Positions 5,119-61,555 of a stretch of 64,000 bases of DNA are shown one piece after another (positions within the stretch are counted from its first letter, which is position 1; the number at the start of each line of letters is the position of its first letter). The stretch is from a phage. The translations under genes and the position numbers were made by a program. The notes beneath the pieces were generated by a model, which saw nothing but the letters and a program-made list of their open reading frames with translations, did no database searches and was not told the origin of the DNA. The stretch lies in sequence record OZ346222.1; one strand, given 5' to 3'.

Positions 5119-5308
5119 GCTTAAATCTGCATGGAACATCGCTGTGGGGGACGAGATCCGCATCCCAGGTGGAAAGACCATTATGAAGATATCTCGTATC
5201 GAGTACGAAGGTGATCGTGTATTTCATATCTTTGCAGAAGATGGTCGAGAAATTTATATACAGGCAGGCTCTCACATCTATATTCGTAAGAAAGGGGACG
5301 ACAAATGA
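5111..5308 (+). CDS. hypothetical protein (65 aa)
   Basis: Track ORF 5045..5308 trimmed to ATG after AAGGAGGG RBS. Confidence 0.45.
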   Translation: MFKLKSAWNIAVGDEIRIPGGKTIMKISRIEYEGDRVFHIFAEDGREIYIQAGSHIYIRKKGDDK

Positions 5309-5634
5309 CAGAGATCATCATTTCAACTGCAGGGTATGTGTTCCTGACAATCATTGCACTGACCATTCTGGTGGTGGTATATGGAATTGTTATTCTCCCT
5401 ATTCTTGAGACAATTAGTTTGTGTCGGTGTTGGAGAAAGGCTTACGGTCCACAGCCGTGGAAGGACTGGCCCCACCTGGTGCACATAGCGTTCTCTTATG
5501 CTTATGATCACGCCAGCAGTGCATGCATAACCGGGTATCACGCCCACAACTGGAGCTGGGAAGGGTTGAGGAAATGGAATGTTACAAAGACCATACCTCT
5601 GCGCATGTACAAACCTAAAAACAAAGACAGCTGA
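5305..5634 (+). CDS. membrane protein (109 aa)
   Basis: Track ORF; ATGA coupling; hydrophobic N-terminal helix. Confidence 0.55.
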   Translation: MTEIIISTAGYVFLTIIALTILVVVYGIVILPILETISLCRCWRKAYGPQPWKDWPHLVHIAFSYAYDHASSACITGYHAHNWSWEGLRKWNVTKTIPLRMYKPKNKDS

Positions 5635-5947
5635 TACTTGAAAATCCCTGGCATATCAAGTGTAAGGAGGATTTCTAAAATGGATTTCCTCCTTTTGATA
5701 TTTCACCGGGCCAGATATTTTAAAATTCTTAGAAAATCAGAAAATGGATCGAAAACTAAAATGGATTTTTCAAGACAGGCACGATAAGATGTGCTGCTCA
5801 TTCTATCGTTCGCACCGTACTTTAAGTCACTATTCCAGATTTTTCCGCACATACTCTCACCCTTCTACCAGAACTTTCCCAGCTTACCTCTGACCTTTTA
5901 TAACAATAAGTCCATTATTATCAGAAAGTTTCGGCACATCTCTTTCG

Positions 5948-6140
5948 GTACTCGATCTGTTTTTCATTTCAAAGACCTGATTTTCTGAAAATTTTTCTCG
6001 ATAAATTTCTTAGTACTCGATCTGTTTTTCATTTCAAAGACCTGATTTTCTGAAAATTTTTCTCGATAAATTTCTTAGTACTCGATCTGTTTTTCGTTTT
6101 CTGAATCGGATTTTCTGGAAATCGTTCCAGCTCTCGACCT
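5948..6140. repeat. tandem direct repeat, about 64-bp unit, two full copies plus a diverged third
   Basis: Unit GTACTCGATCTGTTTTTCATTTCAAAGACCTGATTTTCTGAAAATTTTTCTCGATAAATTTCTTA repeated exactly twice, third copy diverges. Confidence 0.8.
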
Positions 6141-6305
6141 GAAATTTTTGGGGACGAAATCGATTTTTCGTTTTCAGAAATGGATTTTTAAAATTTCTAT
6201 ATGGGAATATTTTATGGGATACTGTTTTATAGGAAATTGTTACGGAGGGTAATTAGCATGCTAATTAAATTTATTAAATGCGAGGAGTTCTCATTTAGAA
6301 TTTTG

Positions 6306-6495
6306 AATGATAATCATTCTCGTTTGCAGAATAACGGGCAGGCCCGGTGATTGTCTCCCGGCCCCTACTGCCCCGGCTTGTTATTATAGTATCACACAGG
6401 ACAAAGAAAGCAAGGATTTTTTGCATAAATTTTTAAATGATAATGATAACCGTTCTCATTTTATGCAGCGCCCATCCCCGGTGGTTGTCTCCCCC
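6306..6495. repeat. two about 60-bp direct repeats ending in GC-rich core CCGGTG(A/G)TTGTCTCCC
   Basis: AATGATAAT...TTGCAG...CCGGTGATTGTCTCCCGG at about 6306-6365 and a variant at about 6436-6495; third inverted copy of the core at about 16115-16139. Confidence 0.7.
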
Positions 6496-6716
6496 GTCAC
6501 CGGTGCCTGCCGTCCTTTCGATAGGTATATCGTGCCACCTGGCGGGGCCGCTGTCAACACTTTTCAAAAAATTTTTCTAACCTGATGCGCTAACCGCTGC
6601 AACCTGGCGGGGTCAGCCTGGCAGGACCTAACTGACCGGGTAGGAGAGAATGAAGGCTTGTAAACCTGGTGGGCCTATGCTACAGGATAGGTAACAATTG
6701 AAGAGGAGGTACAAAA

Positions 6717-6884
6717 ATGAAAGGTAATATGATCCCCCTAGAAAATGTAGCTATTAATGACGCTGAGGCTATCGCCCTGGTTGAAAAGGCTATGGCGGGA
6801 GCGTTGGAACATAAAGAAGAGTACGAAAAATGGTGGTTAACCTGGCGGGGGCGGCAGGTGGATTCTATCATAAAAATAATTTAA
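6717..6884 (+). CDS. hypothetical small protein (55 aa)
   Basis: Below track cutoff; GAAGAGGAGG RBS then ATG; open frame to TAA. Confidence 0.4.
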   Translation: MKGNMIPLENVAINDAEAIALVEKAMAGALEHKEEYEKWWLTWRGRQVDSIIKII

Positions 6885-6892
6885 AATAGTCG

Positions 6893-6922
6893 TTGACAAC
6901 AAGGTTAATCATGGTATTATTA
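6893..6922 (+). promoter_or_regulatory. sigma70-like promoter
   Basis: TTGACA, 17/18-nt spacer, TATTAT-like. Confidence 0.5.
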
Positions 6923-6970
6923 CCCTACAAGGTGAACAACACCGCACTAACCAGTAAAGAGGATAAATTT

Positions 6971-7168
6971 ATGAACGCATACGGGATCAAAGTACGTCGC
7001 AACACTCGCCAGGTGGTCACCAATCAAGTGATTTGCCGGGTGGATGTAACCATCAACAACGGGCAAGGCCTTTATAAATTTCGTCGCGGTCATAGCTATA
7101 CCCTGCAACAGCTTAATCGTTGCGCCCTGACAAAAGGTCAGATCAACCATTGGTTTAATAAAAAATAA
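6971..7168 (+). CDS. hypothetical protein (65 aa)
   Basis: Track ORF 6893..7168 trimmed to ATG after AAGAGGA RBS (upstream part is the promoter). Confidence 0.5.
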   Translation: MNAYGIKVRRNTRQVVTNQVICRVDVTINNGQGLYKFRRGHSYTLQQLNRCALTKGQINHWFNKK

Positions 7169-7171
7169 GTA

Positions 7172-7200
7172 TTGACATACAGTCCGACACCAAATACACT
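7172..7200 (+). promoter_or_regulatory. sigma70-like promoter
   Basis: TTGACA, 17-nt spacer, TACACT. Confidence 0.55.
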
Positions 7201-13724: not shown

Positions 13725-13779
13725 ACCTGGCGGGGCCGAAAAGGCCCCCAATTATGAAAATAAAGAGAGGCAAATCATC

Positions 13780-16029: not shown

Positions 16030-16165
16030 ATAAAAAGTGTTTTGGTACTGATTTTGGGGTTGACTTGTTCGGCCCCTTTTGCTATTCTTATTAAACGGGC
16101 GGCACTTGGGAACAGGGGGAGACAATCACCAGGCCTGCCTGTCATATAAGAACTATAAAAACCGT

Positions 16166-16195
16166 TGACATCTGCCAGGGGGTGGGGTAACATTT
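16166..16195 (+). promoter_or_regulatory. sigma70-like promoter with 5' UTR hairpin
   Basis: TTGACA, 17-nt spacer, TAACAT; hairpin GGGGCAAAGGTGCCCC follows. Confidence 0.5.
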
Positions 16196-16247: not shown

Positions 16248-16520
16248 ATGTCAAGCTGGATTAATCAAGAAGTCGAATCACGTTTTAATGCTATTTGGGA
16301 TCTCATCGAAAAAGAAGACGGCACATCAAGCCCCTACCTCAACAATTTGGAATTCCATTTTGTGGAAGCGATGAACGCAGAACATGATCACGAAGGTGGT
16401 GCGGACGAGTTCGCTAAAGGGTATGGCTTCAACAATGCCAACGAAATGATCGAGGCGGTTGTACTCCAGGCTGAGGAAGATTATCAATTAAAAACGCTTG
16501 AATTCTGCCGCCGCAAGTAA
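16248..16520 (+). CDS. hypothetical acidic protein (90 aa)
   Basis: Track ORF; AGAGAGGAAAA RBS. Confidence 0.55.
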   Translation: MSSWINQEVESRFNAIWDLIEKEDGTSSPYLNNLEFHFVEAMNAEHDHEGGADEFAKGYGFNNANEMIEAVVLQAEEDYQLKTLEFCRRK

Positions 16521-17408: not shown

Positions 17409-17426
17409 TTTTTTAACTGAATTATC

Positions 17427-17452
17427 AAGGGGCTTAGGCCCCTTTCTTTTTG
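17427..17452 (+). terminator. intrinsic terminator closing the rightward early array
   Basis: AAGGGGC tta GGCCCCTT followed by TCTTTTT. Confidence 0.7.
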
Positions 17453-17889
17453 TCTGCTCTTCCCCCTACCATAAACGGCCCTACCTGGCAAGTGGAATAA
17501 TTGACGAGCCATCAATCCCACACACTGTACAAATATACATGTAAAATAACTATTGCATAACCTTTCATTGTGTGGTAGCGGTGCTATTTTTTACCTGTTT
17601 TCCTTCCAAAATTGCACGTAATGCAGCTATTGCACAAAATTTAACCTGATGCACATCTCCAATATCCTGTCAACAACTAAAAATCTTTATAAGTCATACA
17701 CTTACACAGCATCGAAAGCGTGTTCTACGCGAAAAATCGAGTATAACTATAGCCGCCAGATCTCAGAATTCACGTACGCACGCCATTCTATAGCCTGCAA
17801 AGTATTTATTCCAACCACAGAATAACGGAATAGTCAATACCTGAATAAAATAATTATTCGTTTAAACTGCATAACATAAATCAGCTCAG

Positions 17890-19410
17890 GTGTCAACATT
17901 TTTCGTAAACAGTCTGAAATTGTCACTGTGAGTTATCATAAACAGAGAAATCTTTAGTCGTATAATGTTTACTGTACGTTACTATACTGACTGGAATCAT
18001 TAGATGACTAATAGAAAGATAAGAAATAATTAACAATACAATTATTTTACCTGTAACAATAAGACAACTATGCAAACGAATGGCATGGCGCGACGGAGTC
18101 GCGACATAATATAAAAGCAGTAACCATCACCCCCGTGATGGTTTGTCTGCAATCTATTAATCAGATCATAGTTGCCTTGTATTCAGTTAATCATGACATA
18201 ATAAGCAAGGCAACTATAGATCTGCTAATAGTTGCCCTGCTTTTATATTATGTCATATATTATTAACTTGTTAATTGTTAACTTGCTAATTGTTTTCATG
18301 CAAACGAATGTCATGGCTTATCCTATCTGTGTAAACAGTTAAGGTGTAAACTATCCAGGCGTAAACAGTCTATGCGGGAACAATCTATACGTGAACAGTG
18401 AAACATGAAATAATAACAGTCGTTATTGTGTCGAAAGTGTATAAGGTGTCAGACAAGTTTTTCTCCTCTTTGTCAAGTGCTGCATGAAAAATTTACAAGC
18501 TTGTATGGTAGCATTTTTGCGGCCCTGTTTACATTCAGCGATGTATGTATAATCCTTGTTGTGTGGGCGTTTAGACGTCTAGACGGTCAGAAGTCTGCAG
18601 GTTAATACCTAATCTATCGGCTGCTAACTATATCCCACACAAATAGTAAGAAATATAATTGTTATGTGCGTAAACAGTAACTCATGTTATCAATCCCTGT
18701 ATGTATCGCCAGTGGTGCGCATAATGGGTATTATGTTAAATTGCCCGTAATGATAACTATTCTCACAATGATAGGTATTCTCATTCACTCCCACAAGATA
18801 GGTTGCAAATGTTGTGCCACTGTGTGAACGGCCTAACCTATTAATTTGCCTCACTGCCTCGATATTTGAGAATTGTTATAAGAATGAGAAGTATTCCCAT
18901 TTCGTCCGCCTGGCAGCACTCCAGTCGCTACCGCTCATGACAGGGCAGAACTAGACCCTCTTCAGATATTTCTGGCTGACTCTTCAGGTCTGTGTGGGAA
19001 AAGCCAACCTCTCCGGCGGCGGGGAGGGGGTCAATTAAAAAAAATTACGTGGTGCATGAAGCGCTCTTCAGGTAAGGCATGTGTTATGGGATGAAACCCT
19101 CTTCAGGCAATGATATTTGTGGGTGTGATATTTGCTGGAAAGCCAGATATGACGGGACTCCTGGCGGGGCAGGGGTAGTACAGACAGGGAAAATATGGGG
19201 GATGTAGTTGGGGAAATTGATCAGACAGGTAGAGTATGGAATATGTTACAAGTATGTTAAATAGGGAGGATGAATATCTGCAGGATTTGTGTGTAAAATC
19301 AAAGACTTAAGTGGTGTTGTGGTATTTTCTATAAATAATTCAAGTTTAATAGGTAATATTTGTCTCTATCCACTTTGTGTGGTAAACAGATTCAGATGAA
19401 ATTGGTTTAC
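17890..19410. repeat. iteron field: at least 8 copies of GTAAACAG(T) in both orientations
   Basis: Copies at about 17899, 17969(-), 18332, 18361, 18527(-), 18669, 19381 plus variants GTAAACTA, GTGAACAG; no ORF of 60 aa or more in 17545-19823. Confidence 0.6.
18150..18320. repeat. nested inverted and direct repeats
   Basis: ATAGTTGCCTTG / CAAGGCAACTAT perfect 12-bp inverted repeat, ATGACATAATA / TATTATGTCAT inverted repeat, TAATTGTT direct repeats, flanked by direct repeats ATGCAAACGAATG(G/T)CATGGC at about 18070 and 18298. Confidence 0.7.
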
Positions 19411-19873
19411 AAGTGTATACATAATATACAAATTAAAGATACAAGAAACCCCCCTCCCCCTTCGGCTACCATTCACCTTTTCCTCTGACTGGTACTTAAA
19501 CACTTATTCAGACTCTTCAGGTTATCACCCATATATCATATGGCAGTGACTGGTGTCCTCCGGCCCCTCTTTCGTCACCCGTCCGCTTCGCCATGCTAAT
19601 GCCATAGCCAATGGTTCGGTTGTTCACTCTGTTCACTCAGGTGTATCTCCATACCCCTTCAAACCGAAGAGAACAGAAAACCCGAATTACTCGGTAAAAG
19701 AAAAGAGAAGAACTTAATTTTATCAGGATAGGCAAGAATGTCAAGGCATGACTGCTCACTAAACAAGCAAACAGTCATGTGTGGAAGGTAAGTGATTGTG
19801 GTGGTGGGAAATTTAGTTGAAAGATGTGTTATAGGTGCGCTTCCAGCACTTTGGCCGGGCAGCTAATTGTGTG

Positions 19874-58203: not shown

Positions 58204-58278
58204 ACCAGTAAAAACTTAAATATCTGTACTATAAGGATTCGTATGTTTTATGTTCACTCTGGAACAGAGGTTAGTAAC

Positions 58279-58361
58279 TGTCCGTGATACGGACACTACT
58301 GTCCGTCACGCGGACACATCTGTCCGTAATACGGACACTAACTGTCCGTGATACGGACACA
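58279..58361. repeat. tandem array of four palindromic sites (C)TGTCCGT-N4/5-ACGGACA(C)
   Basis: Copies at about 58279, 58299, 58320, 58343; period 20-23 bp. Confidence 0.85.
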
Positions 58362-58499
58362 TAAAGAATATAACTAAAATAACTAAATAATAAAAAAAAT
58401 AAAAGATCTAGTACTTATGGTACTAAGTACATATACTTAACTTATGTAGAATATACTAGATCCTAAGTACCATGTTTTAAATTTATTACTTACTATAGG

Positions 58500-60742: not shown

Positions 60743-60817
60743 GCCCTGTTAGCTTAGTGGATAAAGCAGCGGCCTTCTAAGCCGTTGACACTGGTTCGAG
60801 TCCAGTACGGGGTGCCA
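60743..60817 (+). tRNA. tRNA-Arg (anticodon TCT)
   Basis: Manual fold: 7-bp acceptor with G-U pairs, anticodon loop CTTCTAA, T-loop TTCGAGT, 3' CCA encoded. Confidence 0.7.
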
Positions 60818-60821
60818 AATT

Positions 60822-60908
60822 GGGGAGTTATCCCGTAGAGGTAGCGGTGTAGACTGTAAATCTATTGTCATTGCGACTCGGGTGGTTCGACTCCACCACT
60901 CCCCACCA
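60822..60908 (+). tRNA. tRNA-Tyr (anticodon GTA), long variable arm
   Basis: Acceptor GGGGAGT/ACTCCCC, anticodon loop CTGTAAA, long extra arm, T-loop TTCGACT, CCA encoded. Confidence 0.75.
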
Positions 60909-61022
60909 AATTTATATTTTTAGATGCATAAATAATACAGATAATGGCATTGATATTTATCGTCGTTTATACTAGTCACTAACTGCTCGAAAATCAGTGT
61001 CATTATCAGTATAATTTATAAA

Positions 61023-61113
61023 GGAGGGTAGGGAGCAATGGTGCTCAAGCGGTATTGAAAACCGTCCCGTTGAGGATGACTCGATGATGGTTCGATTCCA
61101 TTACTCTCCGCCA
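61023..61113 (+). tRNA. tRNA-Ser (anticodon TGA), long variable arm
   Basis: Acceptor GGAGGGT/ACTCTCC, anticodon loop ATTGAAA, about 20-nt extra arm, T-loop TTCGATT, CCA encoded. Confidence 0.7.
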
Positions 61114-61211
61114 CATTGTTGACCTTGTAATTAAGCGAAAGCCGGAAGCAGAACCGGATTATCAAATGTTACAGTCGTCATCGCCGACTAGCAACATGGT
61201 CAACATACTGA

Positions 61212-61308
61212 GCTAGGTAAGCCCTTTGGCAAGGGCGAGGATTTTTAATCCTGAAAATAGACGAGGTAGTCGTTGAATACATAGGTGGTTCGATTCCATC
61301 ACCTAGCA
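61212..61308 (+). tRNA. atypical tRNA-like gene (possible anticodon TTT) with about 30-nt extra arm
   Basis: Acceptor GCTAGGT/ACCTAGC, D-arm GCCC/GGGC, 4-bp anticodon stem with loop TTTTTAA, T-arm GGTGG TTCGATT CCATC; no CCA; extra region too long for a canonical tRNA. Confidence 0.35.
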
Positions 61309-61315
61309 CCTTTTT

Positions 61316-61391
61316 GCTGATGTAGCACAATCGGTAGTGCAATTGATTTGTAATCAATAGGTTGTAGGTTCAAGTCCTGCCATCAGCACCA
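61316..61391 (+). tRNA. tRNA-Thr (anticodon TGT)
   Basis: Acceptor GCTGATG/CATCAGC, anticodon stem ATTGA/TCAAT with loop TTTGTAA, T-loop TTCAAGT, CCA encoded. Confidence 0.75.
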
Positions 61392-61392
61392 A

Positions 61393-61467
61393 GGCCCTGT
61401 AGCTGGAAGGTTCAAGCAAGCGACTCATAATCGCCAGACGGTGGTTCAATTCCACCCAGGGCCACCA
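61393..61467 (+). tRNA. tRNA-Met or Ile2 (anticodon CAT), elongator type
   Basis: Acceptor GGCCCTG/CAGGGCC (G1-C72 paired), anticodon loop CTCATAA, T-loop TTCAATT, CCA encoded. Confidence 0.7.
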
Positions 61468-61478
61468 AATAGTAAATA

Positions 61479-61555
61479 CTCCGCGTAGCTCAGCTTGGTA
61501 GAGCGCCTGATTTGGGATCAGGAGGTCGAGTGTTCGAATCACTCCGTGGAGACCA
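61479..61555 (+). tRNA. tRNA-Pro (anticodon TGG)
   Basis: Acceptor CTCCGCG/CGTGGAG, anticodon stem CCTGA/TCAGG with loop TTTGGGA, T-loop TTCGAAT, CCA encoded. Confidence 0.75.

Follow-up and report, generated by a model that had tools for sequence, protein, structure and literature searches.

What is the function of about 1.08 kb of DNA that lies within a block of small plus-strand early genes in a lytic coliphage, holds no convincing open reading frame (ORF) and is more conserved than the genes that flank it? The region occupies positions 5635-6716 of the window, the 64,000-nucleotide (nt) stretch of sequence record OZ346222.1 analysed here, between a gene ending at 5634 (5305-5634) and a gene for a 55-amino-acid protein starting at 6717 (6717-6884). 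The window derives from a Vequintavirus, an rV5-like lytic myovirus of Escherichia coli: positions 5400-7200 were matched by 122 phage records at 80-95% identity, the best being EdH4 (93.5%). Strong sigma-70 promoter sequences precede several of the early genes (6893, 7172, 7638 and 8319). An initial annotation, made from the sequence alone, had described a repeat-rich non-coding zone with three separate repeat systems: a tandem repeat, paired 60-bp elements with a GC-rich core, and a ACCTGGCGGGG motif. The repeats proved to be real and non-random, with coordinates off by no more than one or two bases, and all three systems were present in Vequintavirus relatives. That annotation had overlooked two features on which our answer turns: each 60-bp element has as its AT-rich left half a Fur-box palindrome (Fur, the ferric uptake regulator, is the iron sensor of the host), and an opposite-strand promoter sequence faces each core. 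The two elements, E1 and E2, and the DNA just upstream of them have the following parts.

6253-6270: perfect 18-bp palindrome, TAATTAGCATGCTAATTA, just upstream of the Fur boxes.
6277-6295: distal palindrome resembling a degenerate Fur box, AATGCGAGGAGTTCTCATT; it lies 29 bp before the proximal box and scored 16.5 bits with the phage matrix described below.
6300-6324: AATGATAATCATTCTCGTT (6306-6324), the proximal Fur box of E1, overlapped by a second site that starts 6 bp earlier (6300).
6303-6332, plus strand: putative Fur-occluded forward promoter, TTGAAT-18-CAGAAT, with a start predicted near 6339.
6336-6375: GC-rich element E1 (60% GC), core CCGGTGATTGTCTCC at 6344-6358.
6383-6413, minus strand: predicted promoter facing E1, -35 TTGCTT (6413-6408), 19-bp spacer, -10 TATAAT (6388-6383), start near 6376.
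6436-6460: Fur boxes of E2, AATGATAACCGTTCTCATT (6442-6460) and an overlapping site 6 bp upstream (6436).
6466-6528: GC-rich element E2, core CCGGTGGTTGTCTCC at 6478-6492.
6529-6557, minus strand: predicted promoter facing E2, -35 TTGACA (6557-6552), 17-bp GC-rich spacer, -10 CACGAT (6534-6529).

The paired elements had been described as sharing CCGGTG(A/G)TTGTCTCC, which was found at 6344-6358 and 6478-6492; the two units also align upstream, over the palindromes. Each core lies just downstream of a 19-bp palindrome (6306 for E1, 6436/6442 for E2, with a weaker one at 6277). We took as a Fur box a 19-bp palindromic site matching the classical consensus GATAATGATAATCATTATC, or its 7-1-7 form TGATAATnATTATCA, and the palindromes were of this kind, with 15 of 19 consensus matches at 6303 and 16 of 19 at 6439. 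A scoring matrix built only from 20 distinct phage palindromes was then scanned over four 50-kb pieces (200 kb) of E. coli K-12. All of the seven best matches, and 11 of the best 12, fell in known Fur-regulated promoter regions, the promoters matched being those of ryhB, fecI, fecA, fhuA, fepA-fes, fepD-entS and fepB-entC. The top match (27.6 bits) lay upstream of ryhB and, after a coordinate shift between genome versions, was centred on the Fur site that PMC2189734 reports as confirmed by gel shift. In the reverse direction, a matrix built from the E. coli sites matched by the phage matrix gave 25.5 bits at 6306 (26.4 with the phage matrix) and 22.1 and 18.4 bits at 6442 and 6436 (26.6 and 12.5 with the phage matrix). 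The best score of the E. coli-site matrix in 50 shuffled windows was 20.2 bits, which was exceeded by both 6306 and 6442.

Secondary sites were offset from the main ones by exactly 6 bp (6300/6306 and 6436/6442), a spacing typical of Fur clusters, and 6-bp pairs occurred in rV5, BI-EHEC and FKP3 as well; overlapping sites offset by 3 or 6 bp are described for Fur clusters in PMC2189734. A distant BLAST search showed that positions ∼6258-6422 are 71-88% identical to unannotated DNA in phages from other genera, where the palindrome, with consensus AATGAGAATCATTCTCATT, is present in one to five copies whose starts are exactly 29 bp apart; the 29-bp spacing of the 6277 and 6306 boxes has the same phasing. 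Searching 5,426 E. coli genomes by BLAST with the operator region was uninformative, the query being too short for a 28-Gb database. From these results together we conclude that, at the level of sequence, the palindromes have Fur-box specificity, and we infer that Fur itself binds them. That they are functional Fur operators is, in our judgement, probable. The 18-bp palindrome TAATTAGCATGCTAATTA upstream, which lies in a block nearly invariant in Vequintavirus alignments, is possibly an operator too.

The zone bore no signature of coding DNA, as the initial annotation had suspected from ORFs that lacked a start context. The rV5 record places ORF 198 and ORF 199 across it, and the rV5 paper and database records show only hypothetical ORFs there. 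No Shine-Dalgarno sequence was visible upstream of the ORFs that cross the zone. In the frame of the ORF at 6307-6585, variable sites among nine Vequintavirus sequences were spread over the three codon positions as 8/9/11. This frame ends after seven codons in Mydo, KpS11 and a Vequintavirus contig from IMG/VR (L018), and the DNA beyond the stop is still conserved. A T/A homopolymer tract within the same ORF (6561-6578), in which the A-run varies from 6 to 15 bases among the nine relatives, contains frame-breaking insertions and deletions. With no coding signature and a frame broken in relatives, the crossing ORFs were not supported as genes; they are probably mis-annotated across more than 100 phage genome records.

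Conservation was centred on the elements themselves. In the nine sequences, variable columns per site amounted to 0.09-0.14 from the first palindrome to the end of E2, as compared with 0.33 in the 3' spacer and 0.54 in the next gene, so that E1-E2 has three- to fivefold fewer variable sites than its flanks. The E2 island (6466-6560, 66% GC) was almost invariant, at 0.105 variable sites per column against 0.33-0.54 in the flanks. We read 5635-6716 as a conserved non-coding control region inside the early-gene block.

The core CGGTGWTTGTCTCC recurs, as part of a larger cassette, in seven genera of two subfamilies, Vequintavirinae and Stephanstirmvirinae. Alignment of 14 loci from Vequinta-, Seuna-, Certre-, Mydo-, Henuna-, Phapecocta- and Justusliebigvirus showed a fixed order: last Fur box, C(A/T)GAAT, RRCRSGCA, five variable bases, the core CGGTG(A/T)TT(T)GTCTC, a variable GC-rich stretch, a TATAAT-like box, about 17 bases, and CAAG. 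Read on the minus strand, the last three of these items form a good sigma-70 promoter directed back into the core. C(A/T)GAAT and the following RRCRSGCA were conserved in all 14 loci, and TTG precedes the proximal box in the Vequintavirinae loci; in E1 the Fur box lies between TTGAAT and CAGAAT, a weak match to the promoter consensus that is altered in Mydovirus.

In the predicted facing promoters, the hexamers differ between genera and stay promoter-like. Nearly every copy scored 8-11 of 12, with the promoter at a constant distance from the core; over a 13-nt search range, the chance of a score of at least 8 is 0.04 and that of at least 9 is 0.009. At the position homologous to the E1-facing promoter, most genera had a promoter scoring 8-10 with different hexamers. 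The E2-facing promoter scored 9-11, its -10 being CACAAT or CATAAT in relatives, so that the hexamers vary and stay promoter-like. In other genera the facing promoters read TTGCAA-17-TATATT, TTGATC-16-TATTAT, TTGCCA-17-TATATT and TTGACC-17-GATAAT. The first ACCTGGCGGGG copy (6537-6547) is the GC-rich spacer of the promoter facing E2; three repeat systems do exist, as first described, but they are not fully separate.

The five bases between GGCA and CGGTG (6339-6343 and homologous positions) took two recurrent forms, GG(C/T)CC and CCCCC, each of which is found within Vequintavirus as well as outside it and together with either state of a nearby TAC/TGT polymorphism. No compensating change for this pentamer was found elsewhere, and covariation of GGCCC or CCCCC between E1 and the inverted copy described below was rejected, with agreement in only three of seven phages. 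In genera other than Vequintavirus (loci L003, L004, L005 and L019), a strongly conserved GC-rich block replaces E2 ∼100 nt downstream of E1. It consists of CTACCGGCGATCCACCTTCC...GTTAGCCCCGCCTTTTCGCCGTGGGGTGGCG and a U-rich tail, is preceded by two 10-bp repeats, TCTTTACAA, and is likewise faced by a minus-strand promoter sequence with a GC-rich spacer (checked in Mydo); consensus folding with RNAalifold gave only two short helices of about -9 kcal/mol on either strand.

The cassette was absent from the 185,579 bacterial species genomes scanned. In IMG/VR, matches to the cassette patterns were confined to Vequintavirus-like contigs, one further contig with the same cassette as a Salmonella phage record, and chance sites in coding DNA.

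A third, inverted copy of the core, also claimed at the outset, was confirmed at 16.1 kb and is called E3.

16060-16145: E3 locus, in which a predicted early promoter, TTGACT-17-TATTCT (16060-16088, plus strand), reads into the inverted core (16118-16132, minus strand).
16165-16193: second predicted promoter, TTGACA-17-TAACAT, followed by a gene at 16248-16520.

When extended, E3 (GGCAGGCC(C/T)GGTGATTGTCTCCC) was identical to E1 at 22 of 23 bases. Since the core is inverted here, the facing promoter of this copy is the plus-strand early promoter. The E3 locus is conserved in Stephanstirmvirinae and Certrevirus, and Fur boxes lie beyond the E3 core in F4M1E and FKP3. A duplex between the predicted E1 RNA and the E3 leader was computed at -67 kcal/mol, against a background of -31 +/- 7, which makes the E3 leader the best trans partner of the E1 RNA in the 64 kb, its own antisense aside.

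From this anatomy we propose that the region is a Fur-gated convergent transcription cassette that makes short antisense RNAs. The two tandem cassettes would each comprise one or two Fur operators, a weak forward promoter covered by the operator, the 13- to 15-nt GC-rich core CGGTGWTTGTCTCC, and an opposite-strand sigma-70 promoter that points back across the core at the Fur boxes. With iron plentiful, Fur-Fe would sit on the operators and keep the forward transcript off, perhaps along with the facing one. Under iron starvation the phage would produce the forward RNAs, which would be antisense to the transcripts of the facing promoters and, in this phage, also to the leader of the 16.06-kb early promoter (22 of 23 bases). 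Taken as a whole, with its promoter activities, RNAs and RNA roles all predicted, this model has in our view slightly less than an even chance of being right. More tentative still is its extension, that lytic myoviruses of the Vequintavirinae and Stephanstirmvirinae use host Fur as an iron sensor, short convergent antisense transcripts around CGGTGWTTGTCTCC tying early expression or replication initiation to how iron-replete the infected cell is.

Several observations weigh against the proposal. The forward promoters resemble the sigma-70 consensus weakly (scores of 7.5 for E1 and 6.0 for E2), and the Mydovirus -10, CTGAAT, is without the key A. The E3 copy of the window has no Fur box. E1 and E3 share an uninterrupted identical stretch of 14-21 nt in Vequinta- and Certrevirus; in Stephanstirmvirinae it shrinks to 6-7 nt, so that trans pairing cannot be a universal function. 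Strings resembling Fur boxes can arise from Met-Ile-Ile-Leu coding starts, which makes the weaker matches elsewhere unreliable. As for the RNAs, RNAalifold found no consensus structure in 24 core copies and 14 E1 copies on either strand (0-4 trivial pairs), single-sequence folds were unremarkable (z-scores of -0.2 to -1.8), and E1 is followed by no clear intrinsic terminator.

A terminator scan was likewise negative where E1 and E2 end; in E2 a long stem is possible, with UUUUCAAAAAAUUUUU 6 nt later. Rfam searches of the window and four relatives, at gathering and permissive thresholds, yielded only tRNAs and one chance match. A candidate seed, CGGTGWTTGTCTC, was invariant or nearly so in the 24 copies from seven genera, and the sequence 3' of it was variable. 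Conservation thus lies in primary sequence near the 5' end of either predicted transcript, which fits a seed or a protein- or DNA-binding site rather than a structured RNA.

The same anatomy might serve replication instead, and here the tandem repeats upstream of the Fur array come into play.

5948-6012, 6013-6077 and 6078-6142: 65-bp tandem repeat, the first two copies exact and the third at 68% identity (Tandem Repeats Finder score 297).

The repeat had been described as a 64-bp unit present two to three times at 5948-6140; its existence was upheld and its period corrected to 65 bp. A further degenerate unit extends to about 6188. Each copy contains a 33-bp motif, TCGATC-N5-TTTC-R-TTT-N8-(C/T)G(G/T)ATTTT (5952-5984, 6017-6049 and 6082-6114), which is conserved in four genera and occurs one to three times upstream of the Fur array, at differing spacings, in Seuna-, Certre- and Mydovirus. 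Conservation beyond the genus thus holds both for this motif and for the GC-core cassette. Three relatives compared have one 65-bp copy fewer, which makes the second exact copy here a recent duplication. The repeats are most likely, judging from their sequence, a binding-site array for a phage protein.

In a transcription-primed origin of replication, a leftward G-cluster RNA (GGGGGAGACAA...) from the facing promoters would form a stable hybrid with DNA and prime synthesis into the AT-rich 33-bp motif array, bound by a phage initiator. Either the forward RNA, itself under Fur control, or Fur as a roadblock would adjust initiation to the iron supply, much like the control of RNA II by RNA I in ColE1. 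The layout suits this idea: three to four units of 33-bp direct repeats, in DNA of 31.5% GC as against 60-66% in E1 and E2, lie directly beyond strong facing promoters and Fur boxes; the facing transcripts would be G-rich over E2 (35 C versus 26 G on the plus strand); repeat copy number varies, as replication slippage would give; and no origin is defined for rV5 (PMC3606486). However, no DnaA box at up to one mismatch was found within 5.0-7.5 kb, and GATC was neither in excess nor clustered in the repeat region. GC skew turns elsewhere, at about 20-21 kb and 57 kb, along with transcription direction. The 16.1-kb core cassette has no repeat array beyond it, Stephanstirmvirinae keep the cassette with other repeats at the array position, and a Pfam search of ten neighbouring proteins, which gave nothing useful, recognised no adjacent initiator gene. 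An origin is the main rival to our reading, though we consider it unlikely.

A second alternative keeps the operators and removes the iron: the palindromes would be bound by a phage-encoded repressor whose sites resemble Fur boxes, in an ordinary early/middle switch. Their 29-bp phasing does differ from the usual 6-bp packing of Fur, and the phage consensus favours G where classical Fur has T (TGAGAAT versus TGATAAT). Against this, the phage matrix picks out Fur-regulated E. coli promoters with almost no false matches, overlapping sites offset by 6 bp are present, and no Fur-like or other DNA-binding domain was detected in the few flanking proteins tested (the same ten). A phage repressor is a poorer candidate than an origin, and we regard it as improbable.

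Still less probable is a role as Fur decoys, by which Fur would be drawn off by hundreds of replicated genomes, so that host iron uptake and Fur-repressed genes would be derepressed, to the advantage of the phage. Each genome does carry several high-scoring boxes, up to four or five in the arrays of Certrevirus and Phapecoctavirus, and multicopy Fur boxes derepress a Fur-controlled reporter in the Fur titration assay, as described in PMC2189734. Strong boxes are nevertheless few, and titration leaves unexplained both the fixed linkage of last box, core and facing promoter and the 29-bp phasing.

Small protein genes (rV5 ORF 198 and ORF 199), possibly a type I toxin with an antisense RNA, are largely refuted and very improbable: the 92-amino-acid ORF at 6307-6585 opens within the Fur box with MIIILVC, relatives have annotated ORFs like it, and convergent promoters are typical of type I toxin-antitoxin loci, but to the broken frame, the codon-position spread, the variable A-tract and the missing Shine-Dalgarno sequence noted above are added the absence of a Pfam match, a product of 25-26 amino acids in GAP31 and phiWec186 as against more than 90 here, and perfect palindromes phased at 29 bp, which coding cannot explain.

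Outside the proposed Fur-gated cassettes, the zone and its 3' border contain the following features.

5669-5705, plus strand: probable terminator of the upstream gene, read from the sequence as GGAGGA-N15-TCCTCC followed by TTTTGATATTT.
5714-5772: conserved AT-rich block of AAAATGGAT(T/C) repeats (family D4).
6602-6625, plus strand: ACCTGGCGGGG copy 2, predicted to fold into a hairpin, CCUGGCGGGG-N-CCUGGCAGG.
6665-6673, plus strand: CCTGGTGGG, a motif variant that Gotham, slur16 and Mangalyan have lost or altered; the stretch around it is dispensable.
6840-6850, plus strand: ACCTGGCGGGG copy 3, inside the 55-amino-acid gene.

The inverted repeat at 5669-5705 was invariant in four Vequintavirus sequences with variable flanks. 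The AT-rich block was kept even in the most divergent relative (L018), and 5773-5945 was poorly conserved. For ACCTGGCGGGG, the four copies first listed were exact (6537, 6602, 6840 and 13725), and a fifth, TCCTGGCGGGG at 19159, had one mismatch; five copies at up to one mismatch compare with 0.45 expected, a number reached in none of 100 shuffles. Copy 2 was kept in all nine Vequintavirus sequences, of which three have lost 6626-6700. At 13725-13750 a stop codon is followed at once by a GGGGCC-GAAAA-GGCCCC hairpin, likely a terminator without a U-tail, with the fourth copy as its 5' arm. The related string CCTGGYGGG occurred six times, always on the plus strand, against 0.58 expected; its identification as Chi was rejected, as it is not Chi and Chi sites were not enriched.

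Elsewhere in the window, 17410-19800 is a second, larger gene-free region with several repeat families, including 15-bp tandem arrays (18259-18399), GTAAACAGT repeats, five copies of CTCTTCAGG and the 19159 motif just mentioned; the 'non-coding' box of the rV5 paper is probably this separate 2.6-kb gap, matching 17.4-19.8 kb of the window. It contains Fur-box-like sites at 18749, 18767 and 18883 (16-21 bits) that are kept in rV5, JeffSchatz and WalterGehring. Alternatively, the first two may mark where a small ORF (MITILTMIGILI...) begins, identical to the start of a coding sequence in Certrevirus F4M1E. Four tandem 21-bp units at 58277-58404, each with the inverted repeat GTCCGT-N4-ACGGAC, lie near the switch in transcription direction at 57-58 kb and look like an operator array. 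Seven tRNA genes are clustered at 60743-61555, where a 99-nt call at 61212-61310 was given a four-base anticodon (atcc) by ARAGORN and only 35.5 bits by Rfam. About 16-22 'Campylobacter phage' records (MG0656xx) were 88-99% identical to this coliphage region and appear to be Vequintaviruses deposited with a Campylobacter host name.

Fur boxes and Fur-repressed small RNAs are textbook features of bacteria, and rV5-like and phAPEC8-like lytic phages are widely used as candidates for therapy and biocontrol. In the literature searched, we found no report of Fur boxes in rV5-like, phAPEC8-like or any virulent phage and nothing relevant on transcriptomes of the rV5-like and phAPEC8-like groups; a 2025 review of phage small RNAs leaves Fur unmentioned. 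If Fur really binds, these phages would be iron sensors. Iron conditions in laboratory broth are sharply different from those in the gut or in infected tissue, and the efficacy of the phages could depend on this. A further class of host-regulator capture would then also be known among virulent phages.

Among known systems, the rV5-like phage phiTE, of the same subfamily, carries pseudo-ToxI repeats with a 36-nt unit (PMC3475682). They lie a few genes before the terminase, with the tRNA genes on one side and a gene for a virion structural protein on the other. Like the 65-bp array they are tandem and non-coding, and slippage changes the number of their copies. Identity with pseudo-ToxI or a type III antitoxin was rejected on the grounds of the different locus and unit length (36 nt versus 65 bp), and a permissive Rfam search found no match to the ToxI family. 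Iteron-type origins, such as lambda ori and plasmid origins, also combine direct repeats of a conserved motif, AT-rich DNA and adjoining promoters, here predicted ones; unlike them, the phage array has a 33-bp motif at irregular spacing between genera and is without DnaA boxes, a skew inflection or a recognised initiator gene.

The proposed Fur-gated convergent transcription has its counterparts in RNA I/RNA II of ColE1 and in the face-to-face pR/pL promoters of coliphage 186. As in these modules, predicted promoters less than 100 bp apart face each other across a conserved segment and would give complementary RNAs. No homology with either was found, conserved stem-loops are absent, one arm of the phage cassette has operators for host Fur, and its transcripts are predicted. 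With the Fur clusters of iron-uptake genes (fepA-fes, fhuA, fecI and the aerobactin gene iucA), the phage sites share the TGAnAATnATTnTCA-type 19-bp palindrome, overlaps offset by 6 bp and several sites per region; they differ in that full boxes repeat at 29 bp, in a virus, and not before an iron-uptake gene.

Fur-repressed small RNA genes, ryhB of E. coli and the tandem prrF1-prrF2 of Pseudomonas, offer a further parallel. Sequence similarity to ryhB was sought beyond the box. The -10/start region of ryhB, ATTGTCTCGCGATC (L016, 25016-25050), matches the core region of E1 in Phapecoctavirus and a Seunavirus-like contig (L002, L006 and L019), ATTGTCTCGCGCTC or TTTGTCTCGCGATT, at 12-13 bases, a score no better than that of the best shuffles, so that a common origin of the two is not supported. 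Homology between E1 and ryhB through the 12- to 14-nt match TTGTCTCGCG(A/C)T was rejected on the same ground. What the systems share is their plan: in each, a Fur box lies over or beside the promoter, in the phage a predicted one, of a short non-coding unit. Of the E. coli sites, it is the operator of ryhB that matches the phage boxes best (27.6 bits). Like prrF1-prrF2, the Vequintavirus locus has two tandem units, each with its own box. Beyond the box, no homology was demonstrated (the TTGTCTCGCGAT match is not significant). In contrast to ryhB and prrF, the phage locus shows no clear Rho-independent terminator, conserved fold or Rfam match, and its cassette is carried by lytic phages, with each of its units opposed by a predicted facing promoter.

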